This document shows positions 8,044-45,505 of a stretch of DNA of 64,000 nucleotides, in pieces. Under the pieces are notes generated by a model, which searched no databases, was not told the origin of the DNA, and worked only from the letters and a program-made list of their open reading frames with translations. The position numbers and the translations under genes were made by a program. This stretch comes from a virus. The DNA is taken from positions 38,132 through 102,131 of IMG/VR virus record IMGVR_UViG_3300025000_000067, one strand, 5' to 3'. The stretch's first letter is position 1. Each line of letters opens with the position of its first letter.

Positions 8044-8046
8044 GCG

Positions 8047-27451: not shown

Positions 27452-30400
27452 ATGGAAATACTCAACTTAAAAGACCTAAATATTATAAAGGGGTATTTTA
27501 AGCAAGAACTTCACCCAAGAGCAAGAGATGGTAAGTTTGCTAAAAAGCATGAGGGTATTGTCTCTCCAGTTGTTAGAGAGGAGCCTAAAAAGGCCTCTAA
27601 GACAAGTGCAAAGGCAAAACCTAAGGCAAGTACACCAAAAAAGGATACCAAGAGCAAGACTACCCCAAAAAAGACCGCTCCTAAGAAACCTGATCCAGCA
27701 GTTAAGGTACCAGACAAGAAAACTGCAGCTAAAAAGGTAGCTAAGCCAAAAGAAGCTAAGAAATTCTATAGGTATAGCCCCGGTGCAAGCAGCTTTATAG
27801 AGGCAGTAGGGGCTAAGGAAGTCAAGTTAAAGGCTGTTAAAGGATCATTTTTCATGGAGCACCCGGACCCTGAACATCCCGAGGACACGTATATCTATGA
27901 GACTACAACAGGGACTAGGATAATTTCGTGCTTCACTGGAGAAAAAGATGCTATAAAAATGGCAGAGTCTAGGCTCAAGGGCTGGGGACAGGAATATTTT
28001 GAGGATAGGATGTCTACAAATAAAATGGCCCGTGGTCTAGCACCAGGGCATGAGAATCCTAAGAAAGTAGCTAAACCTGCAGCTAAAACTAAGGAAGCAA
28101 CAGCGCCTAAGATGCCCCCGGTAGTTGATGATCTAGTTAAGAAAAGAGTACCAAGGCCTAAGGTTGTTTTGCTACCTAAGACTAGTGATTCAGAGTTTAG
28201 TGACTTAGCTCCTGACTTCCAAAACAAAGGGCGTGTAAGAGTTATTGCACGTCGAGTAGGTAGTTACGCTGTGCCTAATATGCAGGTAAATAGTCGTGAA
28301 GATGTGGCCCAAGTTTTTGCAGATTTAACCGACTCAGATCGTGAAAAGAGCTATGTGCTGGGAACTAAAAATGGGGAAGTCGTGGGCATCCACTGCGCTC
28401 ACATAGGTAATGTTGATTCAAGTATTATTGACCCTAAGGACATGATGAAAGTACCGCTCCTATCTGGTGCAGATACAGTTTACCTAATCCATAATCACCC
28501 AACAGGAGATAGTACCCCGAGTCAACCGGATGTGGCAGTTACTGAGCGCTTTAGGGATGTAGCAGATCACATGGGTATGCGGTTCGGTGGTCACGTTGTT
28601 ATAGGTGACAATGAGTACACAGCTCTAAATGGTAATGGAAGTATCGTTGAATTCAACAAAAATATGGATCGTTCTAAAATCATGAGAACTGAGCAGGCAC
28701 CTATCTATGAAACCTATCAAGAGAAAGATGCCAGTGTACCTGGGCCTAGGATGAATGGTGTAGATGATGTAAAAGACTACATCAAAAATAATCTTAGTAT
28801 CCATGATGCTGATAAGGCCATTTATATTATTGGAGTTGATACCAAAAATGGTATCACCCATGCTGAGCCCCTTGATGTAACTTTATCACCTAATAAGCTT
28901 CGGAAGAAAGCACTTGAGAGTCTTATTAAAGCAAATAGTAAAAGCTTTTTTATGTACACGGGTTTTGGGTCAAGTGAAGTTATGCATAATGCAGGGATAC
29001 AAGATGCCTCTAAAACTCTAGGTATCCAGCTCTACGATGTCATTGTTCCTAATACCAATAGCCGGCAGGATATTGATGCTGGGCACTGGACCTTTCGCTC
29101 CTATGCTGAGAGAAGCATAATGAACCTTGTTAAAGGACTCTATATTGATCTTCAGAAGGCCCTTGCACCAGGCAAAGTAACCAAGACGCAGGCAAAAGCT
29201 CTGCACAAGGAACTTCCACCTGGAGGAGTATGGCGTTCGATGAATGGGCATCATATTTACATCCTCAATGGTAAGGTATTGGCCGGGGCTATCCCGGGGG
29301 TAAAGAGTGCTAAGAAAGCAACGAAGGCCCATTTAGCAGAACATCAGGAAACCATAGACAAAGAAGCTAAGGCTGCTGCTAAGCTTAAGAAGCTTAAAGC
29401 AAGAAGAGATCCAGCAGGCCTAGAGGGTAAGAAGCCTACAACTAAAACGGGGAAAGAGGCTATTGAAGATACACTCAAAGAAGTTAACAATAAAGAATCC
29501 TCGACAAAACGAACCAAGGTAACCCCTGAGTTTATGGCAAAGCAAAAGGAAGCCGTGGATGCGCTTGCTAAGAAACCAAAGCCTAAGAGCAAGAAAGCAA
29601 CGCTTGAGGAGCAGCAGGCTGAAGCTAAGAAGATGCTTGAGCCTACCACTAAACCTAAAGATAAAGCAAAAGAGATTTTAAACTCTAAAAACGATAAACA
29701 AGATAAGATTATTCAGGCAGCTTCTGAGCTTACAGAAGCTAAACGGGCGACAGATAAGGTTATTAAACGCAAAGGTGTTAATGATATCCGAACCGAAAAA
29801 CAAGCCAACAATGAAACAGCTTACGATGTGGGGGCTAAGATCGGTGGAGCTCGTAAAGATGTCGCAGTTTTTGATGCGTTTCTGAAGAGCTTAAGTGGGC
29901 AAAGCTTAGGGGATGTGGAAAAGATGTCTCCTGAACAGGCGCAGAAGTTGTGTGTTAAGAAGAATCTTCTAAAGCCTGTAGACTTTGAAGCAGATTATAA
30001 ACGAGGCGTGGACATAAATGTAGCTATCACAAAACAGCTTATTTATGATCGTATAACCCCTAAGCCTAGCGATGATACCCCTGAAGCAAGGGCAGGATAT
30101 CTACATGCTATTAAAGAACTACAACGGCAGCTAGAACCTGTTACATCATGGGATGAGTTTAAGAAAGCAACTCGTAACCTAGGAGACTGGATGAAGGCTG
30201 AAACGCCTAAGAATATGGGTGACCAGCAACGCTACTTAGAATATGCCCAAAAACAGTATGAAAAAGAACCAACTGAAGATGACCTAAAGGAAAGGGTCTA
30301 TACACCAGGATCAGATGTAAAATGGGTAACACTTACGCGTGATGAGTGGAAGAAGAAAAAGCTGGATAGGGTAAATGATGTCAAGCGAGACATTGAATTT

Positions 30401-33400
30401 GCTAAAAAAACTGCACAAAGCCCATATGCACCGCTCGGAGAGAAGTTAACGAACTTCTTTACAAATTACGAGAGTCGTGATCGGACTATGCAGACGGTAG
30501 CTAGTAAAAATATGACATGGGATAAATACATCTCTAAGCAAAAAGAAGCTTCGGAAGCACATAAAGAGGAAAAAGGAGCGAAGACTAAGACTAAGTGGGA
30601 AAAGATGATGCCTGCTAAGATTCAGCGCTCAGGTGGACGTGATACTAAGGTTCAAAAACCTGAAGAAATGGTAAAAACTTTCGGCTTTAAGGGGATAGAA
30701 TTTGGTAACTGGGTTGACGATAAGAGCGGAAACTTTCACCTAGTCAAGTGTGCTGAAGCCTTTCATGACCTAGCGGATATTCTAGGTCTTCAGGACAAAG
30801 ATGTGTCGATGAATGGTAGGTTATCTATGGCTTTTGGTGCCCGGGGTAAGGGTAAAGCCTTAGCTCACTATGAGGCTTTAAGTAAGGCTATAAATATTAC
30901 TAAAGAAGGCGGGGCCGGGTCCTTAGCCCACGAGTGGGGCCATGCCATGGATAATATTCTCTATCAGGAGAGCGCAGGCAGAAATTCAACGAATCTAGCT
31001 TCTGAAGGTATGGGAGACGTAGGGGATAAGCGAATCAAAGCGTCTTACGAAGTCCTTATGGATGCTATTCTTAAAGGCGATGGCTCAGGGATTGAATACG
31101 TTGACAATAAAGACAATGATTACTATAGCTATTATCCTAAGCGAAGACAGGCAGTAGCCGATTTAGGAATAGCAGGAGCTGTACTCAAATACAGCAAAGA
31201 GCTAGACTCTGCGCGTGATAGGGCATTGTCCAGTACAGAAGACTGGGCACAACGCTATAATTATGATAAAGCTAAGAAAGAAAAAGAAATCAAAAAGATT
31301 TTACGAAAACACACCACGGATAAGAACGCTATGGTTCAGGAAATGGCCTATCACCATAAAAAACTAACAGGCGAAGTACTAGACAAGATACCCGTACCAA
31401 ATGGTATGTCCCAATTTTACACAGATTCTAAGAATGTAGGCGGGGATACTGATTACTGGATTAGTAACTGTGAACTCTTTGCACGGGCCTTTGAAACCTA
31501 TGTTGAGAGCAAGATGAGGACAGGAAAGATCAAAAACGATTACCTAGTGCATGGGTCTTGGTATGATACAAAGTCTACACCATACCCAAAAGGTAAAGAA
31601 CGTGATGCTATCAATGGTGCATTTGATGAGCTTATGAAGAACGTTAGAAACTCAGGAGCCATTCAGAAAGGCCTATCCTTCGATCTTCAGAAGGGCATTA
31701 TTGGACGAAGTGACCTACAAAGACCCGTAATACCTATTACCCGAAGTGCATACAACGTAGCGAATACAGAAGGTATACTTTATATCCCTACCAACCGTTT
31801 GCAGACCCCTTTTCAGACAGACAAAGCTCTTGACTTCGATAAGGTCAGATCCAATGTAACCCGGATGGAAAATGGTGAAAACATTGACCCTATCATCATT
31901 GGCTGGAACTATGAGGTCCATGATGGCCATCACAAGCTTGAGGCAAGTAAAATACAAGGCTATACCCACTGCCCATGTATCATTGGTGAATTCAACGGCA
32001 TCGACAAGCAGAGGCTTTTTGAAGAGTACTCGGAGCTATGGAAATCCTTTAGGGAAGACTACGCTGAACCCAAAAAGTATAAAACTAGATCTTTAAAGAC
32101 AGACATCGAAACCACGGACCTAGACGGTGAAAAGAAAGCCATTATTGATTACTCCGAGCGCCTGAAGCAGATCAAAGACCCTAGGATCCGGAAGATCCTT
32201 GTAGAGATTATTGCCGATGAGAAGAACCATAAGCATAACCTTGCACAAGTACTATCATATCTTAATGGTGATAAGACCGCTCTTAACAGCAATAAGCTTC
32301 AGAAGTCCTTGGTCTACTTACCAGAGGTAGACACTGGGCTAAGCGCCTTTCCCTATGATAATGCATCGGGGATTATGTTCCGTGGTATTGGCCAAAAAGA
32401 GTATGACTTCATTCAGAAGTCTGGGTACATCCAGACCAAGGGTAAAGGAAACGATGCAGACCAAGAGAATGTTGTTACCTGCTTCAGTACCCTCTTCAGT
32501 CAAGCAGAAGGTTATGCTAGAAGTAACTATGATCTATACAACGAGACAATGGCCTATGTTTTAGTTGTAGAATACAGGGGAGTAGAAAATGAGCTAGGTG
32601 AAATAGAAGTTCTAGAGAAGACACCTGCTAGCTCCATCTTTGGTGTGATTCCAGTTCCTAAGACTCCAGTAATGAAAGGACTCTACATTGACTTAAAAAA
32701 GTCGATAACCCGCTCAGAGGCTAAGAAAGTACACAAAGACCTTCCTGAAGGTGGTGTCTGGCGTACACTCATGGGCCACCACGTCTACATCAAAGACGGT
32801 AAGATCTTAGCGGGATCAGTACCCGGGGTCAAAGGTGTAAAGAAGGCGACTAAGGAGCATCTAGCAGGGCATCAGAAGACCATTGATAAAGAGGCTAAGA
32901 AGGCTGTACCAAAGGCTAATGAAGTTAAGGGATTAGTACAAAGAGAAGTGGGGCAATTAGATAGGGGTATGACCGCACTAGCTAAGGGGAAGAAATTAAG
33001 GGCTAAGCTAGGAGATATTCATAGTTCAGAGGATACGTATAATGCCTATGCACGAAAAGTAAGTGAATACAAGGATAGGCTAGGAACTGACCCTCACAAG
33101 CTAACTTATGGTGACTTTTATAGTACTGCTAGAGAGTATCAAGGTTTTATAGGCAGTGATGAAATGCCCCTTAATGCTCTAGCCAAGATGAACAGATTAC
33201 CTAATAATGGGCTAAGGCGTGAGCTAGAACTGCACTATAACTTTGTTAAAAGGGCACTGGAGGAAGGAAAAGAAGTTCCTCCTGAAGTACTCAAAGATTA
33301 CCCTGAATTAGTTAGCGTCCATAAATCTGAAAAGCCTGTGTATGATAAGGCTAAGGGGGAAGGAACCTCCAAAACAAAAGGAGTGGACGCTAAGATGGGT

Positions 33401-34918
33401 AGTAGATTGAGCGCAACCAATGCTAAAAAACTTATGGGCGAGTACGGTGTACCAGCAGGTCATAGAGAAGCCGTACTGAATACACTGAAACACAGCACAA
33501 CGTCAAATAGCTTTAGTGCCCAAGGGCGGGATGAGTTAGATGTCACAGGTAGTAAACAAGTTATAGGACGAGAGTATAGCGCGGTGGATGTTCAGAAGGC
33601 CGTCGAATCCTATAAGAAAGATAAGAAGTTTGCTAAAGACGTCGCTGCTAAGGCCATAGCCATAAATGATGCTGCTAAACAGGAGAAAAAGGCTAAGAGT
33701 GATGCTAAGGCTCAAAAAGAGCTGGAACATGATGAATTCTTAGAGACGATCAAAGCTAACACTGATCAGATGTATAAAGATCAGGAAACACGTGAAGCTA
33801 AGAAGAACAGAACTCCTGAGCAGGTTGCTGCAGACGAAAAAGCTTTTGCAGACTTTGACCCTTTGGCTCTTCTGATGGCAGGTACTGAGCCTAATAAAGA
33901 ACCTTGGGAGATGACACCTGATGAATACTTTCATGACAAGATGGTTAAAACGGGGTACATGAAAGGGGCACAAGGTGAATACGTAGGAGTTATACATGAT
34001 CGATACAGGGAACACTTAGCAGGTAGTGCTAGCTTAGCACAGCAGAAAGAATGGTCAGATCAAGAGCATAAAAAACTAATACTCAAACATCATGCAGAGA
34101 CTACTTCTATGGCTGATGCTTTCAAGGAGTTTATGGATGCTAATAAACCCAAAGAAGAGCCAAAAATAGCCCAGTACTATAAGTCAAATAAATCTGTAGG
34201 AGACAGAACAGGTAAGTTAACTTATGTACCTGTAGATGGTAAACGGATTGATATAGGTGGCGATGTCCATGCTTTCATACACAAAGGAGCAGGGGGTCGA
34301 GGTTGGGTGATCACAGAAGTTCGTTCAGGTATTATGCTTGCTAATGGTAAAACTCAAGATGAAACAATGGTAAAAGCTCGGGAAGCCGTGACTAAGTTAG
34401 GCCCTACTAAACTAGCTGAAGGGGTAAAGAAGCACATAGACAAACATGGTGAAAGTCCAGCAACAGCAGAGCCAGGTAAAGCTGGCACCATATTCGGTTC
34501 TGAGCAGCCAGTAACACCCTACCATATAGCTGTACCTAAGGGTAAAAACGGTAAAGCTAAGTATACGCCCGTGCACAATGCGGAAAAAGTGAACGTAGGA
34601 AAAGGTATCCATGCTTTTATCCATGGGCGAGAAGGAGACTGGGCAGTTTCAGAAGCCCGCTCTGGTCTTAAAATTACGAGCAACAGTAGTAAGAATTTAG
34701 CTGTAAAAATAGCTAAGGAGTTAATAGAGCGCAACAGGGAAAATCTTGATACTATGATTCAGAAGCATATTGAAAAACATGGTGAATCTCCTAAGACAGC
34801 GCCTACGTTTGATGAGTACGTCAAAAAAGAAGTTAAGGGATCTACGGATCATTTGTCAGTAGAGGCATGGGGTAGCTACAGAAGAAGTTACGATTCCATA
34901 TACAATGGTAAAAGATAG
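27452..34918 (+). CDS. giant polyvalent protein (JAB/RadC x2, HExxH + LPD1-like, ParB-like, ferritin-like, ART-like, repeats)
   Basis: HNHPTGDSTPSQPD; GSLAHEWGH and ELFARAFETYV; DGHHKLEA; E..Y..DEKNH; FRG/FST/EIE. Confidence 0.85.
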   Translation: MEILNLKDLNIIKGYFKQELHPRARDGKFAKKHEGIVSPVVREEPKKASKTSAKAKPKASTPKKDTKSKTTPKKTAPKKPDPAVKVPDKKTAAKKVAKPKEAKKFYRYSPGASSFIEAVGAKEVKLKAVKGSFFMEHPDPEHPEDTYIYETTTGTRIISCFTGEKDAIKMAESRLKGWGQEYFEDRMSTNKMARGLAPGHENPKKVAKPAAKTKEATAPKMPPVVDDLVKKRVPRPKVVLLPKTSDSEFSDLAPDFQNKGRVRVIARRVGSYAVPNMQVNSREDVAQVFADLTDSDREKSYVLGTKNGEVVGIHCAHIGNVDSSIIDPKDMMKVPLLSGADTVYLIHNHPTGDSTPSQPDVAVTERFRDVADHMGMRFGGHVVIGDNEYTALNGNGSIVEFNKNMDRSKIMRTEQAPIYETYQEKDASVPGPRMNGVDDVKDYIKNNLSIHDADKAIYIIGVDTKNGITHAEPLDVTLSPNKLRKKALESLIKANSKSFFMYTGFGSSEVMHNAGIQDASKTLGIQLYDVIVPNTNSRQDIDAGHWTFRSYAERSIMNLVKGLYIDLQKALAPGKVTKTQAKALHKELPPGGVWRSMNGHHIYILNGKVLAGAIPGVKSAKKATKAHLAEHQETIDKEAKAAAKLKKLKARRDPAGLEGKKPTTKTGKEAIEDTLKEVNNKESSTKRTKVTPEFMAKQKEAVDALAKKPKPKSKKATLEEQQAEAKKMLEPTTKPKDKAKEILNSKNDKQDKIIQAASELTEAKRATDKVIKRKGVNDIRTEKQANNETAYDVGAKIGGARKDVAVFDAFLKSLSGQSLGDVEKMSPEQAQKLCVKKNLLKPVDFEADYKRGVDINVAITKQLIYDRITPKPSDDTPEARAGYLHAIKELQRQLEPVTSWDEFKKATRNLGDWMKAETPKNMGDQQRYLEYAQKQYEKEPTEDDLKERVYTPGSDVKWVTLTRDEWKKKKLDRVNDVKRDIEFAKKTAQSPYAPLGEKLTNFFTNYESRDRTMQTVASKNMTWDKYISKQKEASEAHKEEKGAKTKTKWEKMMPAKIQRSGGRDTKVQKPEEMVKTFGFKGIEFGNWVDDKSGNFHLVKCAEAFHDLADILGLQDKDVSMNGRLSMAFGARGKGKALAHYEALSKAINITKEGGAGSLAHEWGHAMDNILYQESAGRNSTNLASEGMGDVGDKRIKASYEVLMDAILKGDGSGIEYVDNKDNDYYSYYPKRRQAVADLGIAGAVLKYSKELDSARDRALSSTEDWAQRYNYDKAKKEKEIKKILRKHTTDKNAMVQEMAYHHKKLTGEVLDKIPVPNGMSQFYTDSKNVGGDTDYWISNCELFARAFETYVESKMRTGKIKNDYLVHGSWYDTKSTPYPKGKERDAINGAFDELMKNVRNSGAIQKGLSFDLQKGIIGRSDLQRPVIPITRSAYNVANTEGILYIPTNRLQTPFQTDKALDFDKVRSNVTRMENGENIDPIIIGWNYEVHDGHHKLEASKIQGYTHCPCIIGEFNGIDKQRLFEEYSELWKSFREDYAEPKKYKTRSLKTDIETTDLDGEKKAIIDYSERLKQIKDPRIRKILVEIIADEKNHKHNLAQVLSYLNGDKTALNSNKLQKSLVYLPEVDTGLSAFPYDNASGIMFRGIGQKEYDFIQKSGYIQTKGKGNDADQENVVTCFSTLFSQAEGYARSNYDLYNETMAYVLVVEYRGVENELGEIEVLEKTPASSIFGVIPVPKTPVMKGLYIDLKKSITRSEAKKVHKDLPEGGVWRTLMGHHVYIKDGKILAGSVPGVKGVKKATKEHLAGHQKTIDKEAKKAVPKANEVKGLVQREVGQLDRGMTALAKGKKLRAKLGDIHSSEDTYNAYARKVSEYKDRLGTDPHKLTYGDFYSTAREYQGFIGSDEMPLNALAKMNRLPNNGLRRELELHYNFVKRALEEGKEVPPEVLKDYPELVSVHKSEKPVYDKAKGEGTSKTKGVDAKMGSRLSATNAKKLMGEYGVPAGHREAVLNTLKHSTTSNSFSAQGRDELDVTGSKQVIGREYSAVDVQKAVESYKKDKKFAKDVAAKAIAINDAAKQEKKAKSDAKAQKELEHDEFLETIKANTDQMYKDQETREAKKNRTPEQVAADEKAFADFDPLALLMAGTEPNKEPWEMTPDEYFHDKMVKTGYMKGAQGEYVGVIHDRYREHLAGSASLAQQKEWSDQEHKKLILKHHAETTSMADAFKEFMDANKPKEEPKIAQYYKSNKSVGDRTGKLTYVPVDGKRIDIGGDVHAFIHKGAGGRGWVITEVRSGIMLANGKTQDETMVKAREAVTKLGPTKLAEGVKKHIDKHGESPATAEPGKAGTIFGSEQPVTPYHIAVPKGKNGKAKYTPVHNAEKVNVGKGIHAFIHGREGDWAVSEARSGLKITSNSSKNLAVKIAKELIERNRENLDTMIQKHIEKHGESPKTAPTFDEYVKKEVKGSTDHLSVEAWGSYRRSYDSIYNGKR

Positions 34919-34958
34919 CCTTCGGAAGTCTGTGTATAATTAATTCCTAAAGTCTGGT

Positions 34959-35023: not shown

Positions 35024-38000
35024 ATGAATCTATACATAGATTTAGAGAAAGCCATAGGTACAGTATCATGGAGAGAGGAAATTCACCCTCGGGATAAATT
35101 CGGAAAGTTTTCCTCTATCAAAGGTGGCTCAAGTGTCGTTACTCATACTGGAAAAACAGGCACTGTTGAGAAGGTAGACGGGGACTATTACCATGTGCGT
35201 CATGCAGATGGCAAGAAAAGCAGAGTTAAACGTAGTAATGTCATCCATGCCAATGACCACAAAAAGATCATGGACGCCCAGGCTAAGACCAAGAAGCGGA
35301 AGGCTTCTGCTGCAGTGGGTCAAACAACCAAAGCAGCGAATAGGGCTAATGGTACAGGTAAAGCCACAGAGCCTAAGCTAGTTTTGACCAGTGGCAAAAA
35401 GCAGCAATCCACTAAGGTAAAAGCAATGGAGCAGAAGGCCACGGCCGAGAACAAAGCAAATAGAAGAGCTAAGAAAGAGCGTGACCTTTCGGCCCCTGAT
35501 ATACTTCGGAAGCCCATTGAACAGGGAACGACTGGTAGGTCATCCCAGATGAAAAATACTGAGCAGAGTTCTCATGCAGAGGACTACAAAGATTTAGAGA
35601 ATAACCCTGAAGCTACGTCAAGGCTTGATGAGATGTGGAACTCAAAAGAAGCTAAGGCGCTTATGAAGAAAGAGCCAGGTAAACGATCAGAGGCTGATAT
35701 TCGCAGAATCGCTGGGGATATGACTACTCAAAATGACCGATTAGCTTATCACACAACCCTTCAGATGGGAAAGGCCCGGGGAATGAATCTCCTAAGTCAA
35801 GTTAACCGAATTGAGGACGTTGGACCGAGCGGTGATGGAGAGGTCCACAACCAAGAGACGGGGTATTATGGGGATCTTCTTCAAACAGCCCGAGCATCTA
35901 TGTATGAGACTCTATACCGGGTCATGAGCGGAAGTCAGAATCCTGGTAAAGATACTAATATTGGAGCCCATGTCATATCCCGTATGAAGCAGAAGCTTCA
36001 CAAGGATATGTATGCTCTTCTGAATGAAGTCCCGGCACCTCATGAGATCAGGGGAGCACTGGCAGACCTGCATAAAGGGGAAGCAGAACTAATCCAGAGC
36101 CTAGGCCATACACCATCGATGGAGGAACTTGCAAATCATTTGCAACAGACTTCGGCTAAGTTTAAAAGCGCACCGATTATGGACAATCCAACCTATGATG
36201 AAAAGACAGGTCAATGGGTAGCTACCAAGAAACGGATCACAGATCCAGTTGAGCGTCTAAAGACACTGCAGGCCTATAGGGATCGTCAGAAGACCAGTAC
36301 CTTAGATAAGGACATTGATGGAGAAGAAGGGACAGCAGGTTCAGCTGCAGCTAATGTAAAAAGTACAGAAGCGACACCTGATGAACAGTATGAGCAGAAG
36401 GAGCGTCAAAAAGAGCTTAAGACAGCGATCCCTAAAGTTCTGCAGGACATAGGCCTTAGCAGCAAAGAAAAACTAGTCTTCATGGTTATGTTTGGAAGTC
36501 CCTCAGCTAAGATCAACAAAGGAAATATGACCCTTGACGAAGTAGCTGAAGCTATTAACAGGCAGGGCGGGTACGAAGGTGGTAAGCAGGCAACCAAGGA
36601 CTGGGTTAATAAGTATTACAGAAGCGCTATGGTTAAATTATCTGATGCTCGAACAAAGAATCACCCGGCCTTAAAAGAACTTGCTATGATGAAGTCTCTC
36701 GTATTCAATCTCGTTATGAAGTCACTCTATGAGTATGATCTTGTGAAGTCCCTGAATTCATGGGGAATAGGCACTGATATTTTAGTATACAAGCAAACGA
36801 GAATTGCCACGGCAGATAACCTTCTTTCCTTGCAGAAGTCTATGGCACCCCAAGAGTACATTGGATCGATAGTCTACACCGAGGGTGGAGAGCTCCATGC
36901 CCGAATTGTGGAGTTCGGTTTACCTGAAGATAATGAGCTTTATAAAAGCTTCAACTCGTCTTTAGAGAAGTCCATGTTTCCTCATAAAGGTAAGCAACAC
37001 GAAGTCAATAAAAAGATGGGTGACTATGTAAAAGCCAATGCAAAAAAGTACTCTAGCCTTTCTGAAGCCCAGCATGGATCGGCTAAGAAAAAGAGTTCTG
37101 GGCATACATGGTCAGAAGAACTCCTTCTGAAGAACCCGGGCAGCGCATGGATTACATGGGGCGGTAAGCGGGTCCTAGTCAACACGTCTGATGGTAATCT
37201 CATCTATGATTCAGCGAATGAAGTTCATAGAGAGGAACATAATCAAGGGGCTCCAGAAGATAAGATTGACTTCCACCATGAGCAAGACACTGGGCATAAG
37301 GATGCGGGTATCGAAGCCTTTAAAGAAGACATGGAAGGTATGCGTAAGTCCTGGCGTGGTGACGAAACGGATAAGGACTTAGGCATACGGAAGACCTACC
37401 TGAGAGAACACGAGCACAAAGGGCACCATGACTATGCCAACTTCACAGAAGATGAGCAAAAAGCCTATGAGAGCATGAGTGAGGACGAGCGCAAAAAGTT
37501 TCTAGGTAACCGTTATCTGGGCAAAGAAGGAGTTAAAGAAGCTCTACAGAAGTACCGTGACAGTGGAGATACTGAAGCAGATCGAAAAGAGGCTATGGAT
37601 GCCCTATCCAAGGCAGGATCTATGGCAGGTAAAAATGCAAAGATGATGATTGGTAAAACAGGTAACAGTGGCCTATTAGCCCAAGTACGTAAAGGCGCTG
37701 ATGAAGATACCATAGTCGACTTGCTAGGTCAGAACGAACTTACAAGGGCTAAAGAAGAGGCTAGTAAAAAACTTTTACCTGATGGGACGTATCTGGTAGG
37801 AAATCCTCTTACAGGTAAGACAATAGCACTAAAGATTAAGAACGAAGTCACTAAGGCGGGCCAGGGTGGGGCTCATACAAGGTTCGGATCAACGATTGCT
37901 GAAGTCTTTGACCCTGATGGGGGTCAGCACGAGGACCTAAATACATGGGGTGGTCTAGGGAAGGCTCTAGGGTACACAGGTGCTGATGCTTCAGGACTTC

Positions 38001-41000
38001 AAGACATCTTAGCTAAAAAAGCCAACTCTGAGGGTGATAAGCCCTTTATGAAGCAGATCGATGAAGCTGAATATGCTAAGGCACGGTCCAATACCAAGCT
38101 AGGACTTCAGGAGGGCATGGCTCACAAGGACTTCAAGCTTGTTAATCAAAGTCGGAATAAAAAAGGTGAAGTAACAAGTCACACGTATGCACAGGACATG
38201 CCCGATGGAACCCAAAACACGGTTATGGTAGATGCTAAGGGGACGATCACAGATCCAGTCATGGCGCGTCTTCTGAAACAGAGAAAACCTATCGCCAATG
38301 CTGGCGATTTGCATGAGGTCATGCAAGGAGCCGTAGGTAATAGGGCATGGGTTACTGCTCATTCAGGTTCTGGAACTCATGTTAGTGACTCCTTAGGTCA
38401 TCACATTCAGCTTGAATATGATGGAAAAGGTGCCCCTAGGGTAGTCGGTGGAGAGTATGACAGTTACAGATTTATGGACACCAATGACATCCCCAAGGGA
38501 GCGGTGGATCCTGCAACAGGAGAGCCTATCAAAGCCTTATTCAAAGGCGGAAAGCTTGTAGATCGAGGTCTGACTACTAAGAACAAAGTAGCCATGAAGG
38601 AAGGAAACGCTGTTCTTTATCCTGGAGAAAAAGGATTCAGAAAAGGGCGTATTCATGCTATCGAAGGGGACACTTACAAGGTAACGGACGGTAAAGGCCA
38701 TGTTATAGGGATGTTCAAGAAGTCAGAGCTTAAGCAAGCTTCTGAAGAAGGCCGAACCTTATCAGCGAGTGGCCAGTCAGTTGTTAAAACAGCAAAGACG
38801 GGCACACACCGGATGGATACCACGAGCACCTTCAAAGCGGATAATCCTAAGGATCAGAAGAAAGTTGACAAGGTAAAAGAGCTATTCAGTCAAGCCCTTC
38901 AGAAGGCAGGTATAAACAGCGCCTTTGATAAAGACGGTGTTATGAATAACCAACTAGAACTATCAGACGCTATGATGAAGCAGCTAACCAAACGTCTCGG
39001 AAGATCAAAAGCAGGTAAAGAACTTCTTAAGCAGTTTAAGAGTGCTTATACAAAAGAACTTGAAATTCATGTACCTGAAGCTATGAGAGATCAAGTATCT
39101 ACCTATGGGGTTAGAGTCCTAAGCAATGGAACAGCTAAGATTTCAGCAGGTAAGTTTGAAGAGCTTAGAGAAGCCCTAGGAGGCCTGTCTGTAAGTCATG
39201 ATGCTAGAGAACATCTAGCAGAACATTTCAACCGTAAGGATCGTAAGCCTAAGAGTCCTGAAGAGCTTCAGAAGGCCTATCAACCGAATGCTAGTGACTC
39301 AGAAAGTGCCTTTGGCCAAGCGTACCAAGCACAGTTTAAACCAGGTGGTCGGATAATGAAGCAAGGTCTTTATAGTACGCAGCTTGCTGGGGTATCCCAC
39401 TTAGTTGAACGAGGGCGGGGAATAGTTGGACACGGAATGGGCACCGGCAAAACAATCACAGGTGTAGCAGCTGCTTTACACGAGAAGGCTAAGGCTATTT
39501 CTGAAGGAAGAAAGCCAGGAAAGACGCTTGTTGTCTCCCCTGCTGGAATTCAATCGGACTGGGGTAAGGAGATCGGTGGAGAGACTAATTCCAGAGCTCT
39601 CTACATTGGGTCTGAGGGTAATCTTCGGAAGAAGGATTCTAGTGGTAACTGGATGAAGTCTGAGGGCGGGCGTCATATGTTTGGGCAAGAGGGCACTGAA
39701 CAAGAGGCTGTGAGTTCTAAGCACTTTGTAAATAATATCAGCAGCATAGGCTCAGAAGACCATGACTTCCACATTATGTCCTATGACCAATTCATGAAAC
39801 ACCGAGATGTACTTTCTAAGTCCGGCCTGTACGACAATATTATTGTCGATGAAATTCATGCTTTTAAGAATCAAGGAAGACAGCGTGGTAAATCCTTAGC
39901 TGAAACAACTGATTCCTTTAAAAACGTTTGGGGCCTGTCTGGTACTCCCATGGAAAATGATGCTCGTGAAGTCCATAGCCTTATTGATACCGTCACAGGT
40001 GGAAGACATGAACTTGGTACAGCTAAGGAGTTTACAGATAAGTTCCTTATGAAGGACAAAAATGGTAAAGTTATTGGAGTTAAGCCAGCCATGGCGGATA
40101 AGCTTGGGGATATCGTAGCTAATATTGTTCAGTTCAGGGGTTCAGAAGACGTACAGTACAGTGATAGGTCCAAGATTCACTTTCCCCACATCATCGGAAG
40201 CGACGCAGCTCAAAAGGAAAATGCACCCGAAGACTTCATGAGTAACATGGCAGACCGTAACCGAGATCATAAGACAACGGATTACTATGGAACCAAGCAC
40301 TCTGTGTTTGACTTTGAAAGTGGAAGTCATGAGGTAACAGGCAAAAATGGTGAAACATATACATCCCAGACAACTTCGCCAGCTAATCTGAGCCCTGCTC
40401 AACAGAAGTTCTATAACGATTACCATGCAGTTCAGAAGCAATACCTGCCTGATGCTAAACTTCAGGAGATGGTTAAAGCTAGTGCCACGGGGTATGACAA
40501 CACTGAAAAGGGTGAAACGTCCAAGAATTACCTAACTGCTATGCAGAAGCTTCAGAAGCACCTAAATGCACCACTGGCGAGTAGGATGTATGTGCCCGGT
40601 GGGGGAAGTGCTCTAGATTCAGGAGATACAGATGTTCAGGCAGTAGCAGAAGCTGGGGCCAAGGCCAAGAAAGTGAAATCCGGAGGATTAAAACCCTATA
40701 ACCCAGTTACAGGTGAAGGCCACTATAAAGTCGATGAGCATGGCAACAAGCGGTACTTTGAGAGCGATGGGGAAGGTAGTTTTAAACGAAATAGTGACGG
40801 AAGTCCTAAGCTTCTCCCACCAATGCACCACAACAACCCTAAGGCTGAGTACATGAAGCAGCGAATAAGCACCTACCTAGATTCATTAGCTACGGAAAAC
40901 GAGGCTAGGGCTAAAGCAGGTAAACCAGAGCTGATGCCCAAAGTCGTTGTGAAGTCTAGTTACACTACCTTTGGAACCGATGTTGCAGACGGGGTTATTC

Positions 41001-41662
41001 GCGATCTACAGCGTGAGCACCCACACTTAGCTTATTGGGCAGATAAGCTGCAGAAGCAGGGTCAAAGTCTAGCTGCGGGGCAGTTTACCGGAGAGGCTAA
41101 GGACCGGGAGGAGACTAAGACCGGATTTAGAGGAAATAAAAACAGTTATGCAAAAGATCAGGGTAATATGTGGGCTACCACTGTGTCTCCAGCAGGCAAG
41201 GAGGGTGTAGACTTTGGTAATGCTCACCTAATGCTTATGATGGACCAGGATTGGAACCCTCAGAAGATGGCGCAGTTTACTGCACGTGTCAGGCGCTCAG
41301 ATTCTGCAACAAAAGGACATGAGCAAGTAGGACGAGCTAATAGTGTACGCATCGAATCTCTGCACATGCCCGGAACCATCGAAGACTTTATGTTCAACGC
41401 TGAAGATATTAAAATGGGGGATATTCAGAGAGTCACTAAGGCTACGCGAGATGCTGAAGAGGTTACTAAATTTGGAGATTCAGAGTCTAAAATTAGCTCA
41501 ACAAAGAACTTCACTAGGAGCCAGAAGCGCAGAGCAGGCGCTAAGCCAAAGGGTACAACAGGTGACCCAGGTAGTGCCCAAAGACCAAAGTCTAATGAAA
41601 ATCCCCCAACCCAAGTAGGAAGGCAAGTAGCTAAGGCTCTTAAGTTGGTAGTTATTCTATAA
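35024..41662 (+). CDS. giant protein: KOW-like + sigma70-like domain + SNF2-type SF2 helicase
   Basis: sigma regions 2-4 at ~35700-36650; helicase GMGTGKT (~39434), DEIH (39848), SGTP, AGKEGVDF, WNP..MAQFTARVRR. Confidence 0.85.
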   Translation: MNLYIDLEKAIGTVSWREEIHPRDKFGKFSSIKGGSSVVTHTGKTGTVEKVDGDYYHVRHADGKKSRVKRSNVIHANDHKKIMDAQAKTKKRKASAAVGQTTKAANRANGTGKATEPKLVLTSGKKQQSTKVKAMEQKATAENKANRRAKKERDLSAPDILRKPIEQGTTGRSSQMKNTEQSSHAEDYKDLENNPEATSRLDEMWNSKEAKALMKKEPGKRSEADIRRIAGDMTTQNDRLAYHTTLQMGKARGMNLLSQVNRIEDVGPSGDGEVHNQETGYYGDLLQTARASMYETLYRVMSGSQNPGKDTNIGAHVISRMKQKLHKDMYALLNEVPAPHEIRGALADLHKGEAELIQSLGHTPSMEELANHLQQTSAKFKSAPIMDNPTYDEKTGQWVATKKRITDPVERLKTLQAYRDRQKTSTLDKDIDGEEGTAGSAAANVKSTEATPDEQYEQKERQKELKTAIPKVLQDIGLSSKEKLVFMVMFGSPSAKINKGNMTLDEVAEAINRQGGYEGGKQATKDWVNKYYRSAMVKLSDARTKNHPALKELAMMKSLVFNLVMKSLYEYDLVKSLNSWGIGTDILVYKQTRIATADNLLSLQKSMAPQEYIGSIVYTEGGELHARIVEFGLPEDNELYKSFNSSLEKSMFPHKGKQHEVNKKMGDYVKANAKKYSSLSEAQHGSAKKKSSGHTWSEELLLKNPGSAWITWGGKRVLVNTSDGNLIYDSANEVHREEHNQGAPEDKIDFHHEQDTGHKDAGIEAFKEDMEGMRKSWRGDETDKDLGIRKTYLREHEHKGHHDYANFTEDEQKAYESMSEDERKKFLGNRYLGKEGVKEALQKYRDSGDTEADRKEAMDALSKAGSMAGKNAKMMIGKTGNSGLLAQVRKGADEDTIVDLLGQNELTRAKEEASKKLLPDGTYLVGNPLTGKTIALKIKNEVTKAGQGGAHTRFGSTIAEVFDPDGGQHEDLNTWGGLGKALGYTGADASGLQDILAKKANSEGDKPFMKQIDEAEYAKARSNTKLGLQEGMAHKDFKLVNQSRNKKGEVTSHTYAQDMPDGTQNTVMVDAKGTITDPVMARLLKQRKPIANAGDLHEVMQGAVGNRAWVTAHSGSGTHVSDSLGHHIQLEYDGKGAPRVVGGEYDSYRFMDTNDIPKGAVDPATGEPIKALFKGGKLVDRGLTTKNKVAMKEGNAVLYPGEKGFRKGRIHAIEGDTYKVTDGKGHVIGMFKKSELKQASEEGRTLSASGQSVVKTAKTGTHRMDTTSTFKADNPKDQKKVDKVKELFSQALQKAGINSAFDKDGVMNNQLELSDAMMKQLTKRLGRSKAGKELLKQFKSAYTKELEIHVPEAMRDQVSTYGVRVLSNGTAKISAGKFEELREALGGLSVSHDAREHLAEHFNRKDRKPKSPEELQKAYQPNASDSESAFGQAYQAQFKPGGRIMKQGLYSTQLAGVSHLVERGRGIVGHGMGTGKTITGVAAALHEKAKAISEGRKPGKTLVVSPAGIQSDWGKEIGGETNSRALYIGSEGNLRKKDSSGNWMKSEGGRHMFGQEGTEQEAVSSKHFVNNISSIGSEDHDFHIMSYDQFMKHRDVLSKSGLYDNIIVDEIHAFKNQGRQRGKSLAETTDSFKNVWGLSGTPMENDAREVHSLIDTVTGGRHELGTAKEFTDKFLMKDKNGKVIGVKPAMADKLGDIVANIVQFRGSEDVQYSDRSKIHFPHIIGSDAAQKENAPEDFMSNMADRNRDHKTTDYYGTKHSVFDFESGSHEVTGKNGETYTSQTTSPANLSPAQQKFYNDYHAVQKQYLPDAKLQEMVKASATGYDNTEKGETSKNYLTAMQKLQKHLNAPLASRMYVPGGGSALDSGDTDVQAVAEAGAKAKKVKSGGLKPYNPVTGEGHYKVDEHGNKRYFESDGEGSFKRNSDGSPKLLPPMHHNNPKAEYMKQRISTYLDSLATENEARAKAGKPELMPKVVVKSSYTTFGTDVADGVIRDLQREHPHLAYWADKLQKQGQSLAAGQFTGEAKDREETKTGFRGNKNSYAKDQGNMWATTVSPAGKEGVDFGNAHLMLMMDQDWNPQKMAQFTARVRRSDSATKGHEQVGRANSVRIESLHMPGTIEDFMFNAEDIKMGDIQRVTKATRDAEEVTKFGDSESKISSTKNFTRSQKRRAGAKPKGTTGDPGSAQRPKSNENPPTQVGRQVAKALKLVVIL

Positions 41663-41681
41663 AGCGCGGAGGTTTAAGACT

Positions 41682-41933: not shown

Positions 41934-41958
41934 CCTAAGCATGGGAGGTGTGTAGGCT

Positions 41959-42162
41959 ATGGTACAGTGTCCTGGATGCAAAAGAATCATTATGGATTCA
42001 ATGCAGAGTGGCGGGTACAAGATCCGCTCACGGATGATTCTATTCTCAGATGGTAAAGCCATAGCCATATGCCCTACGTGTAAAACACATGTTGAAGTCC
42101 CGATTATCCTAGGAGCTATACCAGAAGAACCACATAAAAGTAAATTATTCATAAATAAGTAG
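41959..42162 (+). CDS. Zn-ribbon protein (Mu Com-like)
   Basis: VQCPGCKR ... AICPTCKT; GGGAGGTG SD. Confidence 0.65.
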   Translation: MVQCPGCKRIIMDSMQSGGYKIRSRMILFSDGKAIAICPTCKTHVEVPIILGAIPEEPHKSKLFINK

Positions 42163-42193
42163 GGCTTACTTATGAATAATTATGTAATTTATC

Positions 42194-42222
42194 TTGCCAT
42201 TTACTTCCGAAGTTGGTACTAT
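42194..42222 (+). promoter_or_regulatory. promoter TTGCCA-N17-TACTAT with ACTTCCGAAGT palindrome in the spacer
   Basis: consensus-like hexamers upstream of the head operon. Confidence 0.7.
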
Positions 42223-42258
42223 TAACAATAGTTAAATATTTAGGGCAACAAAATCCGT

Positions 42259-42361
42259 GTATAACACAGCTAGGATGGCCCAAGACACGTAGACTAGGCC
42301 AAGGTTTCGCCAGCTCACCTAGCCAAGCAGCGTGTCTTTGGACATCCTAGCTGTGTTATAC
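42259..42361 (+). other. long structured leader hairpin (31-bp stem, 29/31 paired)
   Basis: arms 42259-42289 and 42331-42361. Confidence 0.85.
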
Positions 42362-42391
42362 TTACACCTACTTCGGAAGGTGGTGAAATGA

Positions 42392-43996
42392 ATGCTAGTC
42401 AGTAATGAAACGGTACAAGAGGATACTTATAGGGTATTTGTGCCTATTGAAGATCATGATCTTATAAAGTCCATTGAGATCGATGAAAACGGCGACTACA
42501 TAGTACAGGGTGTCATGACGTCTGATAACAAAGACGAAGAAGATGATAGCATCACACCAGAAGGTATGGATTGTAGCTATTTTCTGGATAAGGGTTGGAT
42601 AAAGTACGAGCATGGTAACTCCCCTAAGCAATTTATAGGTGAGCCTCTAGCGGTTAAAATAGGTCAATTTACACACCCTACAAGACATGAGGTAGTCAAG
42701 GGTATCTTTGTAAAAGCTAAACTTTTTGCTCAGAGAAAGCTCGCTCAAGAAGCAATTCAGACTATGCAAGACCTTCAGAAGAGCCACACTAAACGCACAA
42801 TGGGTTGGTCTATTGAAGGAAATGTTAAAGAACGAAATCGTAAGACAGGAAAAATTGTAAAATCCGTTTTACGAAATCTTGTGCTTACCATGAATCCGGT
42901 GAACACAATTACATGGGCTGAGCTTGCTAAGTCGTTTGAGAAAAACCATGAGCTAACGATTAGCTTAGATGTTGAAAAATCAATGGATACTTCAGGAGCT
43001 GCAGCTATCATGCCTCAGTCCTTGGAAGGTGAAACTCAAGATCCCCAGACAGATTGGGTTAAGCTCTTTAGGAAGTTTTGTAGAGGTAACTTTTTACAGA
43101 AGTCCCTACGTGATAAGTTCGTCGCTGGCTCACAGGGCGTTGTAGGTACGATGACCTATACTTTCGCCTTGGAAAACGGGCTAGATAACGAAGAGGCGTA
43201 CTCATTCGCCTCCTATATACTAGGTAAACATGCTGTTTTAAAATCTATTTTTAGTACAAATTTTGGGGGTGGGGCTATGGGTAAGACAAAAGAACTTGCT
43301 GGTCTGCTAGACGCAGATTTGGAAGAACTTCGAAAGTCCTTAGAACTGAATACAGAAGACGATGAAACGCTTACGAAGTCCAGTAACAAGGATGACGAAG
43401 ATGATGAAGATGCAGATGGCGACGAAGATGGCGACGAAGATGGCGACGAAGATGCAGATGGCGACGAAGATGATGAAGATACGAAAGAAAAATCTCTTCA
43501 GATGGACTTCCGGAAATCTCTAATCGACCATAAGGATGGTGCTCAGGCGCTTGAAGTATCTGATTTTTTATCAGACATGGTGGACGAGCTTGGTTACAGT
43601 ATGGGTGGCCTTTCAAAGTCTCTAGGCCTTGTGTCTAAGCAGCAGGTAACAATGACGAAAGCCCTTATGGGTGCCTTTGATGTCATTAAGAGCTTGACTG
43701 AAAAAATTGAGACGATGCAGACTGATAATGCAGAGCTTAAGAAGTCTCTTGATGGTGTTATGAATCTCCCCATTGGGCGTAAGGGTGCAGTAAGTCCACG
43801 AGACATTACAACGCTTAAGAAGTCTATTGAAGGCGACAAAGGTGGCCTCACACGGCAGCAAGCCGGGGCAATTCTCATGAAGTCATTCGATGCTAAGCTA
43901 ATTCCAGGTTCAGCTGTTACAAGATTCGAGGCAGGGACACCACTGCAGAACCTAGGTTTGCCAGATTCAGTAAAAGCTGAACTTGGTATGCAATAA
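42392..43996 (+). CDS. prohead protease-scaffold fusion
   Basis: upstream of MCP; KYEHG and GWSIEG (His/Ser), PVN motif; acidic DGDE repeat and coiled coil; ~15 xKS/KA motifs. Confidence 0.85.
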   Translation: MLVSNETVQEDTYRVFVPIEDHDLIKSIEIDENGDYIVQGVMTSDNKDEEDDSITPEGMDCSYFLDKGWIKYEHGNSPKQFIGEPLAVKIGQFTHPTRHEVVKGIFVKAKLFAQRKLAQEAIQTMQDLQKSHTKRTMGWSIEGNVKERNRKTGKIVKSVLRNLVLTMNPVNTITWAELAKSFEKNHELTISLDVEKSMDTSGAAAIMPQSLEGETQDPQTDWVKLFRKFCRGNFLQKSLRDKFVAGSQGVVGTMTYTFALENGLDNEEAYSFASYILGKHAVLKSIFSTNFGGGAMGKTKELAGLLDADLEELRKSLELNTEDDETLTKSSNKDDEDDEDADGDEDGDEDGDEDADGDEDDEDTKEKSLQMDFRKSLIDHKDGAQALEVSDFLSDMVDELGYSMGGLSKSLGLVSKQQVTMTKALMGAFDVIKSLTEKIETMQTDNAELKKSLDGVMNLPIGRKGAVSPRDITTLKKSIEGDKGGLTRQQAGAILMKSFDAKLIPGSAVTRFEAGTPLQNLGLPDSVKAELGMQ

Positions 43997-44035
43997 GTAC
44001 CTACAGAAAATAGTAGTAGTAAAGGGGGTAAACCT

Positions 44036-45505
44036 ATGTTTGAAAACTTTAACGGCCTTGAGGACGGGTTTGGGCAAGGTACAGTTGGGGAACTTGAGGA
44101 GCTTAATAAAGCGCTAGGCACCGGGGAGCAGGGAGATGCCTATGGTAGTTTTAATGATATGTCGGCGCTGCGTCCACAGTCTTTAGAAGCAACCCTTAAA
44201 GTGGTTACCGCGACGACAGACCAAATTAAGTTCTGGAAACGCATCGGGAAGAAACAGGCATTTAATACTGTTGAAGAGTTCAACGTAATGGACAGCATGG
44301 GGGGAAATTCTTCTCCGTTCTTCGTTGAGGGTGGCCTTCCAAATGAAGAAGATTCACACTACCTCCGTCAAGCCCAGTACGTTAAATTCCTCGGGACAAC
44401 TCGTGTCATCACACATCCTGCAACTATAGTGCGTAACACAGTTGGTGATATCGTTGCCCGCGAAACTACAAATGGAACATCTTGGCTTTTGATGCAGCTT
44501 GAAAAAGCTCTATACTTTGGTAATTCCGCTCTTGACCCCTTGGCTTTTGACGGAGTTATGATGCAGGTTATAAATGCTGTTGCTGGAAAAACCTATGCGA
44601 ATCAGCACGTTATTGATATGAAGGGTCAACCACTGGATGAGAATACCATGGAAGACGCTTCAGCGATTATTGCAGATAACTTCGGAAGAGGTAAATTAGA
44701 GCTGCACTTAACGAACCAAGTTAATAAGGACCTATCCAAGCTTGTTATGGGCTCAAGTGGTCGGCAGCGGGTAATGATGGGCCAAGGTCAGGAAATAATG
44801 TTAGGCCAGCCTATCGGAGGCTACATGGCAAATGCTGGCCCGATTGAGTTTGTTAATAACATATTCCTTAAGCCACAGGCTACGGTTCCTTCTGCCTCAG
44901 CTAAAGGGGCGCCTGCTGTACCAACATACCCGGGCGGTCAGATAGTAGCCGGATCATCCGGGGCTACAATCCCTTCAGGAACCTACTACTACTTTGTAAC
45001 AGCTAAAAACAGCGCAGGAGAATCAGCACCAGTGTCTATGGGGTCTGTAGCTGTAACTCTAGGACAAGCAGTTACTTTAACCATTAATCGAGTAGTCGGT
45101 GATCCTCCGGCAAAGTCTTATAAGGTCTATCGTGGTACGAAGTCTACAGCTGCTGATGCCTTGTTTGCCTTTGAAATCAAGGACTCTGGTGCAGAAACAA
45201 CTCAAGCTATTATAGACACAAATGCTGATATTCCGGGAACACATAGTGCAATGGCACTAGATAATGATCCAGAAAACGTATTATCATTTAAACAGCTTGC
45301 ACCACTTATGAAGCTGCCTTTAGCTCGCATTTCAGCTGCAGAGCGCTTTATGATCCTGCTTTATGGCATGATTCAAGTGTACAACCCTCGGAGAATCATC
45401 GTGTTTAAAAACATTGGAACACTGGGCCTTAACTCCAACCGTGAGCTCTTCACCCCAAATTATGATGCTCCTAGCTTCGGTACAGTTCGCCCAAGCCTTC
45501 AGTAA
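44036..45505 (+). CDS. major capsid protein (SPO1/K-like, FN3-like insertion)
   Basis: ELNKALGTG, ALRPQSLE, EKALYFGNS, YYYFVTAKNSAGESAP. Confidence 0.9.
   Translation: MFENFNGLEDGFGQGTVGELEELNKALGTGEQGDAYGSFNDMSALRPQSLEATLKVVTATTDQIKFWKRIGKKQAFNTVEEFNVMDSMGGNSSPFFVEGGLPNEEDSHYLRQAQYVKFLGTTRVITHPATIVRNTVGDIVARETTNGTSWLLMQLEKALYFGNSALDPLAFDGVMMQVINAVAGKTYANQHVIDMKGQPLDENTMEDASAIIADNFGRGKLELHLTNQVNKDLSKLVMGSSGRQRVMMGQGQEIMLGQPIGGYMANAGPIEFVNNIFLKPQATVPSASAKGAPAVPTYPGGQIVAGSSGATIPSGTYYYFVTAKNSAGESAPVSMGSVAVTLGQAVTLTINRVVGDPPAKSYKVYRGTKSTAADALFAFEIKDSGAETTQAIIDTNADIPGTHSAMALDNDPENVLSFKQLAPLMKLPLARISAAERFMILLYGMIQVYNPRRIIVFKNIGTLGLNSNRELFTPNYDAPSFGTVRPSLQ

Follow-up and report, generated by a model that had tools for sequence, protein, structure and literature searches.

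The DNA considered here is a window of 64,000 nucleotides (the whole stretch that was analysed), which forms the right-hand end of the IMG/VR record of an uncultured phage, 102 kb long (IMGVR_UViG_3300025000_000067). It contains two giant open reading frames (ORFs), giant A and giant B, which are located between the portal and minor head genes on one side and the prohead protease and major capsid protein (MCP) genes on the other, a synteny that is kept in five relatives (phage genomes G001-G005, whose protease-scaffolds show 35-56% identity to that of the window). Between its minor head and protease genes, this phage of about 100 kb with an SPO1/A511-type capsid would encode head cargo. The two giants are probably head-cargo polyproteins that are packaged and cut by the prohead protease at K↓[SAG] joints (the arrow marks the putative cut), and their products would be ejected with the DNA. 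The sizes and coordinates of both giants, the protease-scaffold and the MCP agree with those of a preliminary description made from the letters of the DNA, as do all the motifs that it quoted, with their nucleotide positions. The genes that frame the system are the following:

22837-24645, plus strand: portal protein (PHROG portal families), with candidate cut sites ELLK↓A (K21) and PLKK↓S (K577)
25027-26295, plus strand: minor head protein (weak phrog_2662 match; conserved synteny in relatives)
27452-34918, plus strand: giant A, 2488 amino acids
35024-41662, plus strand: giant B, 2212 amino acids
42392-43996, plus strand: fusion of the prohead protease (amino acids about 7-190) and a scaffold, containing 15-19 K↓S sites
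44036-44110, plus strand: predicted MCP propeptide, amino acids 1-25, ending ELNK↓A
44111-45505, plus strand: mature major capsid protein, SPO1/A511 type (phrog_752, E = 5e-79)

The protease domain matches phrog_1028 (E = 4e-42) and is 32% identical in blastp to the annotated prohead protease of Listeria phage A511, gp84 (E = 2e-28), with which it shares K↓S sites bordering the domain; its invariant H74 and S140 are candidate catalytic residues, and the homology search with this protease matched 752 phage records. The protease domain is also present in Paenibacillus genomes. All 94 protease-scaffold homologues carry 7-20 strict sites (10-20 in the full-length ones), and an alignment of 77 of these homologues contains 20 conserved site columns, with K at P1 in 91% and R in 2.6%; at P1', S accounts for 76% and G and A for 11% each, a hydrophobic residue, mostly L, stands at P3 in about 89%, and P2' is also hydrophobic. 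K-S pairs that remain invariant amid a variable scaffold are the expected signature of self-digestion sites, and the roughly 15 motif copies noticed earlier in the protease-scaffold correspond to the 15-19 K↓S sites counted here, which are conserved in homologues. The RefSeq record of A511 (NC_009811) annotates, as a mat_peptide feature, mature cps from residue 24, after ALK↓SF, in agreement with the preliminary description, which stated that capsid proteins of this type are matured after a Lys near the N-terminus. This annotated cut aligns with ELNK↓ALGTG (K25) of the window MCP, suggesting that the MCP of this phage is cut at K25. It is likely that the prohead protease recognizes the K↓[SAG] motif. 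In A511, the prohead protease (43442-44236) repeats in its C-terminal part the cleavage site and N-arm of the capsid protein (45292-46695), with FMK↓SWTTGHGTTPDTQ..AGALRRE in the protease and ALK↓SFTTGYGITPDTQ..AGALRRE in the capsid protein. The window MCP shows 34-38% identity to Bacillus SPO1-like phages among the matches listed, and less than 60% across all 779 tblastn records; a blastn search of the protease-MCP region against phages gave no match.

Across the five relatives, 18 of the 22 conserved K of the scaffold are followed by [SAG], as are 7 of 49 in the terminase, connector and tail proteins (one of these seven with a hydrophobic P3). The sites LNKA of the MCP (K25) and LLKA and LKKS of the portal protein (K21 and K577), all quoted in the preliminary description, are kept in the five relatives; K1406, K1414 and K1531 of giant A and K2204 of giant B are also kept, and a cluster of six sites in giant B is retained entire in four relatives, four of its sites being present also in the distant G005. 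The minor head sites quoted earlier (LSKA, LQKA and LFKA) fared less well, one being conserved (K109 is the sole conserved motif site of this protein) and two of the three not. These two, together with three motif matches in the product of an 84-amino-acid gene upstream of giant A, were dropped as cut sites because they are not conserved among relatives. In giant A the motif appears as IIKG (amino acids 11-14), LWKS (1529-1532) and LQKS (1616-1619), and within the longer strings NLVKGLYIDLQKA (amino acids 558-570), AIQKGLSFDLQKG (amino acids 1403-1415) and VMKGLYIDLKKS (1740-1751); giant B starts with MNLYIDLEKA, contains the six-site cluster at amino acids 557-649 and ends in VAKALKLVVIL. The form [LIVMF]xK[SAG][LIVMFY] is observed 15 times in the scaffold (0.8 expected), 13 and 10 times in the giants (3.9 and 2.9 expected) and 26 times in the remainder of the window (15.1 expected), and [DE][LIVMF]xK[SAG] is observed 14 times in the giants (3.6 expected), 9 times in the scaffold (0.5 expected) and 10 times in the remaining 13,450 amino acids (6.0 expected). 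Chance falls far short of explaining the extended motif [DE]-L-x-K↓[SAG], how well it is conserved or where it is placed.

Giant A can be divided at these sites into a leader, six predicted products and three joints formed by octapeptides flanked by a K on each side (pLDDT, predicted local distance difference test, is the confidence score of the AlphaFold model):

27452-27490, plus strand: leader, amino acids 1-13 (MEILNLKDLNIIK↓G)
27491-29134, plus strand: predicted product A1, amino acids 14-561, with an HPR..GKF tag, a Lys/Pro/Ala-rich arm, a RadC/JAB domain and an unassigned domain
29135-29158, plus strand: joint 1, octapeptide GLYIDLQK between K561↓ and K569↓, pLDDT below 50
29159-31669, plus strand: predicted product A2, amino acids 570-1406
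31670-31693, plus strand: joint 2, octapeptide GLSFDLQK between K1406↓ and K1414↓
31694-32044, plus strand: predicted product A3, amino acids 1415-1531, ParB/sulfiredoxin-fold domain, ending ELWK↓S
32045-32305, plus strand: predicted product A4, amino acids 1532-1618, rubrerythrin/ferritin-like helical cassette
32306-32677, plus strand: predicted product A5, amino acids 1619-1742, ADP-ribosyltransferase (ART)-fold domain
32678-32701, plus strand: joint 3, octapeptide GLYIDLKK between K1742↓ and K1750↓, pLDDT below 50
32702-34915, plus strand: predicted product A6, amino acids 1751-2488, with a second module A, an unassigned region and two C-terminal repeats (phrog_7408-like)

The RadC domain of A1 scores 76.7 bits in Pfam, with its HNHP..D motif intact, and the orthologous genes of G001-G004 have no A1 part. 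This RadC/JAB domain, with an intact JAMM motif (amino acids 280-395, positions 28289-28636), lies inside a phage-type polyvalent protein. A2 contains a first module A (LPPGGVWR..GHH.YI), a Lys-rich linker, a helical domain, a zincin with a HEWGH motif at amino acid 1160, and an adjoining LPD1 domain that scores 73.8 bits in Pfam (cut-off of 27); A2 also has PHROG matches. A3 matches PHROG ParB-like nuclease families and, in Foldseek, Noc, ParB and sulfiredoxin. A4 is recognized by the Pfam Rubrerythrin family (29.4 bits, above cut-off) and is missing in most homologues, where the consensus goes from EVWK↓S straight to the ART-fold module, so that this unit, bounded by K↓S at both ends, looks like an inserted cassette. 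A5 has the motifs FRG (1643), FSTL (1678) and E-x-E (about 1717), and its Foldseek matches are cholera toxin A1/LT, Tpt1/KptA and Rhs TreX, with a probability of about 1.0.

In relatives, the interval from the minor head gene to the protease is filled by two to four distinct genes, and a comparison with them indicates how giant A was put together. Their cargo genes start with leaders of 9-20 residues ending in hydrophobic-x-K↓[SAG] (for example ...DLIK↓AITR... in G003), and when 46 leader-bearing genes were aligned pairwise to giant A, about 27 of the leader ends coincided precisely with K13↓G, K561↓G, K569↓A, K1618↓S, K1742↓G or K1750↓S. One homologue (P0100) has the same leader and HPR..GKF start as giant A, its K20↓S being aligned to K13↓G; at joint 1, homologues encoded as genes of their own have leaders whose ends align to K569↓A570 and K561↓G562; one gene (P0133) begins with a leader ending K↓SFREDYA, equivalent to K1531↓S, and two others (P0101 and P0104) with leaders whose last residue aligns to K1618↓S; and at joint 3 about 17 genes that stand alone have leaders ending opposite K1750↓S1751. 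Amino acids 569-1740 of giant A correspond to a single gene in relatives and those from 1746 onward to another, with a gene boundary at joint 3 in G003 and G004, where the A6 equivalent is a separate gene (473 and 515 amino acids, respectively). The internal tags have the form of an N-terminal leader in which K-G replaces the start Met (K↓G-LYIDLxK↓), that is, a second K stands two residues upstream of the tag, and this double-site form is found in 9 of 16 internal tags; cutting at both Lys would release an octapeptide spacer. Similar fusions recur in three other homologues (P0099, P0100 and P0140). The leaders kept at the joints, together with the separate units of the relatives, suggest that giant A is a fusion of at least three cargo genes plus smaller cassettes.

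The predicted structure points in the same direction. In the AlphaFold model of amino acids 562-1750 (24 homologues, mean pLDDT 71.9), K569, K1406/1414, K1531, K1618 and K1742/1750 lie at the edges of segments with pLDDT below 50 between well-folded domains; at joint 2 the low-pLDDT segment (1407-1431) begins right after K1406, which is invariant across the 24 homologues, and includes K1414, and K1531 is nearly invariant. The non-conserved K812, K905 and K1145 and the conserved K1208 are inside confident helices or strands. The placement of the motif at the module boundaries of giant A, proposed in the preliminary description, is therefore upheld, since the joints coincide with gene starts in relatives and lie in predicted linkers.

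Giant B is organized in a similar manner, with fewer and larger predicted units:

35024-35050, plus strand: leader, amino acids 1-9 (MNLYIDLEK↓A); a K↓[SA]-ending leader is present in all orthologues seen
35051-36694, plus strand: predicted product B1, amino acids 10-557, with a W.E..HPR..GKF tag, an SH3-like domain, a basic arm and a sigma-70-fold domain
36695-36970, plus strand: cluster of six K↓S sites (K557, 566, 575, 605, 641 and 649)
36971-41635, plus strand: predicted product B2, amino acids 650-2204, with unassigned domains and an SNF2 helicase
41636-41659, plus strand: C-terminal tail ALKLVVIL after K2204↓

B2 matches SNF2-rel_dom in Pfam (67 bits) and phrog_62, with GTGKT at 1473 and DEIH at 1609. 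In almost every giant B orthologue seen, the C-terminal tail, the sole one of its kind in the 102-kb genome, has the form xK↓[AS][LIM]KLV[IV][LIM]L-end, the exceptions being L021, with a different end, and distant orthologues, which are similar; the tail may serve as a second propeptide or for docking. In G001 the giant B orthologue (L007:1350-6119 and 6931-9177) is split within the SNF2 motif I region (GHG...), an interval of about 800 bp separating this point from a second ORF in which the protein resumes; this interruption may be an intron or a homing-endonuclease insertion.

In the AlphaFold model of amino acids 195-665, the region of giant B from about 195 to 560 (35606-36703) adopts a sigma-70-family fold, and the top 50 PDB matches in Foldseek are all sigma factors (S, B or A), over 314-387 alignment columns and with a best E of 1.5e-4. 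Pfam gives weak matches of B1 to Sigma70_r3 (E = 1.2e-3, below cut-off) and to SH3-like families; Sigma70_r2 and r4 have no match in giant B, r2 has none anywhere in the 102-kb genome, and the sole r4 match is weak (12.9 bits, below cut-off) and located outside giant B, on the minus strand at 32463-32540 of the genome. It is conceivable, if rather unlikely, that B1 is a sigma-70-family factor freed in the capsid from the SNF2 helicase by the prohead protease and injected with the DNA, which would redirect the host core RNA polymerase at once to phage promoters with a non-canonical -35 element, such as the plus-strand TCCACT copies described next, the octapeptide being a plug-in joint for adding, removing or fusing injected proteins. 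Four exact copies of TCCACT-N17-TATRKT, with near-identical spacers, are found on the plus strand upstream of small ORFs (296-324, 552-580, 2298-2326 and 2888-2916); with one mismatch allowed there are 5 matches, all of them exact (the fifth at 53457-53485 on the minus strand), against 1.9 expected, and these copies could be promoters for a phage sigma factor.

The leader is the sole element common to all cargo types. It is followed either by module A (about 80 amino acids, ITR..AK.VHK.LP.GG.WRT..GHH.YI) or by a W.E..HPR..GKF plus SH3-like module, and in both giants a W.E..HPR...G.F tag stands directly after the first cut site; a genome-wide scan for leader-bearing ORFs found only the two giants. 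At least three homologues, one in G004 and two elsewhere (P0118 and P0124), lack the leader and start at P1', suggesting that it is not always needed for targeting; in G004 the upstream gene ends in ...LYIDLRKERR-stop, and is followed by a Shine-Dalgarno sequence and ATG-AITR. The targeting role that the preliminary description gave to LYIDLxK is therefore putative. Almost every cut site has module A or the HPR..GKF module behind it, and either of these could equally well be the targeting element, as could the tail at the end of giant B. Module A has 66 matching clusters among 1.84 billion representatives; of its copies in the 43 clearer ones, 13 of 16 internal and 18 of 27 N-terminal ones have such a site before them. 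This family is rare and uncatalogued in Pfam and PHROGs, where the HPR-SH3 N-terminus and the leaders have no family either, and a search of the phage literature for the string LYIDL gave nothing relevant. The leader-cargo architecture is absent from cultured phages, in which only the zincin-LPD1 core has matches (in Stx and Bacillus phages).

Taken as a whole, these data suggest a scheme in which the prohead protease would have an A511-type specificity for Lys at P1, with [DE]-L-x-K↓S/A/G followed by a hydrophobic residue as its preferred context. It would digest its own fused scaffold at about 15 sites, trim the MCP at K25 and probably the portal protein at K21 and K577, strip the short N-terminal leaders of both giants and the C-terminal tail of giant B, and cut the internal joints K↓G-LYIDLxK↓, freeing the octapeptide spacer. 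Giant A would then give rise to about six products (RadC/JAB, zincin-LPD1, ParB-like, ferritin-like hairpin, ART-fold and C-terminal module) and giant B to two large ones (the sigma-70-fold protein and the SNF2 helicase protein), and the released products would exit the head together with the DNA. The joint at every unit boundary bears the Lys site of the protease, so the giants are probably loaded into the capsid and cut. Cleavage of the giants by the prohead protease is a prediction with good but indirect support from several independent lines; the genomic context suggests their packaging and ejection, and the activities of the products are putative. The claim of the preliminary description that the giants are precursors of separate enzymes stands as a polyprotein-like fusion of head-cargo genes, given the gene fission seen in relatives.

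Several observations weigh against this scheme. The phage collection contains no cultured relative, and the protease domain has no Pfam match (even at E up to 10), no NCBIfam match and no match among PDB sequences. The loose [LIVMF]xK[SAG] motif occurs at 9.6 and 11.8 copies per 1000 amino acids in the giants, inside the range of unrelated window proteins, so it is not enriched and the statistical argument of the preliminary description is weak; with a weight matrix built from the scaffold sites the giants are enriched only about 2-fold, and some tail and early proteins also score high, and joints with G or A at P1' score below a typical scaffold site, which has S at P1'. This background density, in giants that are rich in Lys, would fit sites arising by chance or composition, LYIDL being simply the first strand of the repeated module A, which two LYIDL copies do precede. 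We consider this highly improbable, because the tag also precedes unrelated modules (HPR-SH3, ART fold, SFREDYA and ParB-like), the leader sequences vary around a fixed K↓[SAG] end, leaderless genes begin exactly at P1', the pLDDT of the tag is low, and the extended motif is observed 14 times against 3.6 expected. The enrichment expected for head-associated proteins is thus seen with the extended motifs, in giants and scaffold, but not with the loose one. The leaders and joints could also be uncut docking or assembly signals (for scaffold, portal or shell), or only the leaders might be cut off, leaving the rest of each giant intact in the virion. P1 DarB (250 kDa) is indeed seen as a large protein with an N-terminal signal of 30 amino acids (PMC9024508), the N4 vRNAP is packaged unprocessed (PMC5512222), and the first three sites of the giant B cluster (K557, K566 and K575) are in a confident helix with no linker, although the scaffold, whose sequence matches in the PDB are only to coiled coils, has helical sites too, and a helical position is therefore compatible with cutting, if not a clean linker picture. 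Of the cluster that the preliminary description placed right after the sigma domain, the last two sites, K641 and K649, do lie in low-pLDDT sequence. Docking without internal cuts appears improbable, since the internal joints copy the whole leader plus an additional upstream K↓, lie in predicted linkers, match gene boundaries elsewhere and keep a strict K at P1 with a small P1', as at the annotated capsid cut, which would be needless for pure docking.

A different agent for the same cuts would be the zincin embedded in giant A, acting in the head or after injection. Its HEWGH motif next to LPD1 is intact and invariant in the 24 homologues, and processing of polyvalent proteins by embedded peptidases has been proposed (PMC5512222), two points that also count against the prohead protease. 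However, the same site consensus is found in the scaffold, the MCP and the portal protein; A511 has the annotated Lys cut, and the annotation of its head genes from portal to MCP includes no protein of this kind; and G005 keeps K↓[GSA] leaders on four cargo proteins, although none of the four has an LPD1 or zincin match. Strict specificity for Lys at P1 is, moreover, rare among zincins. On the basis of the shared site, the A511 cut and the G005 leaders, the prohead protease is rated much more likely than the zincin, whose role as the joint-cutting enzyme we regard as quite improbable.

Other genes of the region complete the head-gene block upstream of the giants:

18340-20157, plus strand: terminase
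between terminase and portal, plus strand: Ig-domain protein
27186-27440, plus strand: 84-amino-acid gene, upstream of cargo genes in four relatives

The minor head protein resembles the C-terminal part of fused portal proteins. The gap of about 890 bp between its gene and the 84-amino-acid gene is occupied by a minus-strand ORF of 300 amino acids (26258-27160) with a DUF559/REase_MTES_1575 (Vsr-like endonuclease) domain, which is probably a mobile endonuclease insertion; the spacing between the same two genes is about 20 bp in G001 and about 270 bp in G003 and G004. A DUF6527 gene (24662-25021, 45.5 bits) lies between the portal and minor head genes, and an ORF of 222 amino acids located after the terminase (20408-21076) has a weak, sub-cut-off match to Tad2-like proteins (Thoeris anti-defence).

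If the cuts are real, a single capsid-maturation protease would have been turned into a general release system for swappable injected enzymes (anti-restriction, ADP-ribosylation, nuclease, helicase and perhaps a sigma factor) joined by an eight-residue spacer. Such a system would provide a testable answer to the question of how polyvalent proteins are processed, by the prohead protease rather than by embedded peptidases alone, and a simple design rule for loading foreign proteins into Gram-positive-type phage capsids.

Parts of this organization have counterparts in well-studied phages. In T4, the internal proteins IPI-III and Alt carry a 10-amino-acid capsid-targeting sequence that is removed by the prohead protease gp21 (PMC9026906), and the system described here resembles it in that a short leader ends in the protease consensus (hydrophobic-x-K↓[SAG], a consensus derived independently from the scaffold) and the scaffold or core is digested at many sites. 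Alt, an ADP-ribosyltransferase, is trimmed at both termini, as predicted for giant B, and T4 internal proteins are carried in the head and then ejected, as the products of the giants would be. The differences from T4 are a P1 of Lys instead of Glu, an A511/SPO1-type protease that is fused to the scaffold, cargo units strung together in proteins of 2200-2500 amino acids with internal double sites, and the existence of leaderless homologues. The ejection proteins of phiKZ and SPN3US are processed by gp175/gp245 at A-x-E, and 13 of the 14 mapped cuts remove N-terminal propeptides (PMC10052503); there too one prohead protease trims many head proteins, among them the portal, the MCP and the ejected enzymes, with propeptides cut at several sites, but no polyprotein giving several mature enzymes has been described, and specificity and lineage differ. 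The darB gene of P1 adjoins the portal and protease genes (PMC9024508) and encodes a giant helicase-containing polyvalent protein that is packaged by means of an N-terminal signal, which the leaders resemble, and is believed to accompany the DNA into the cell. DarB carries a methyltransferase, whereas Pfam and PHROG searches of the giants gave no methyltransferase family match, only the SNF2 helicase; no internal processing has been reported for DarB, and in P1 the capsid protein is cut after Glu (E120↓S121).

The closest resemblance in content is to the phage-type polyvalent proteins of Iyer et al. 2017, for which delivery with the DNA and processing into units were predicted (PMC5512222). 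The giants share with them the LPD1, zincin, ParB-like, ART, SNF2 and RadC domains and the late-gene context; several unrelated effector or enzymatic domains are found in one polypeptide, at a virion/late-gene position, and the presence of LPD1, an LPD hallmark, marks architecture and context as those of this class. That model assigns processing to embedded peptidases, whereas the joints described here bear the prohead-protease site. A511 has a homologous protease (32% identity) and a homologous MCP with a Lys cut at the aligned position near the N-terminus, although its portal-to-MCP block has one gene for the protease and another for gp85, the probable scaffold, with no giant cargo gene between them. 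The concept is therefore already known from cleavable cargo leaders, prohead-protease trimming of ejected proteins and polyvalent-protein processing; what is new here is the Lys-specific A511-type protease, the octapeptide-joined polyprotein organization and a cargo that includes a sigma-70-fold module.

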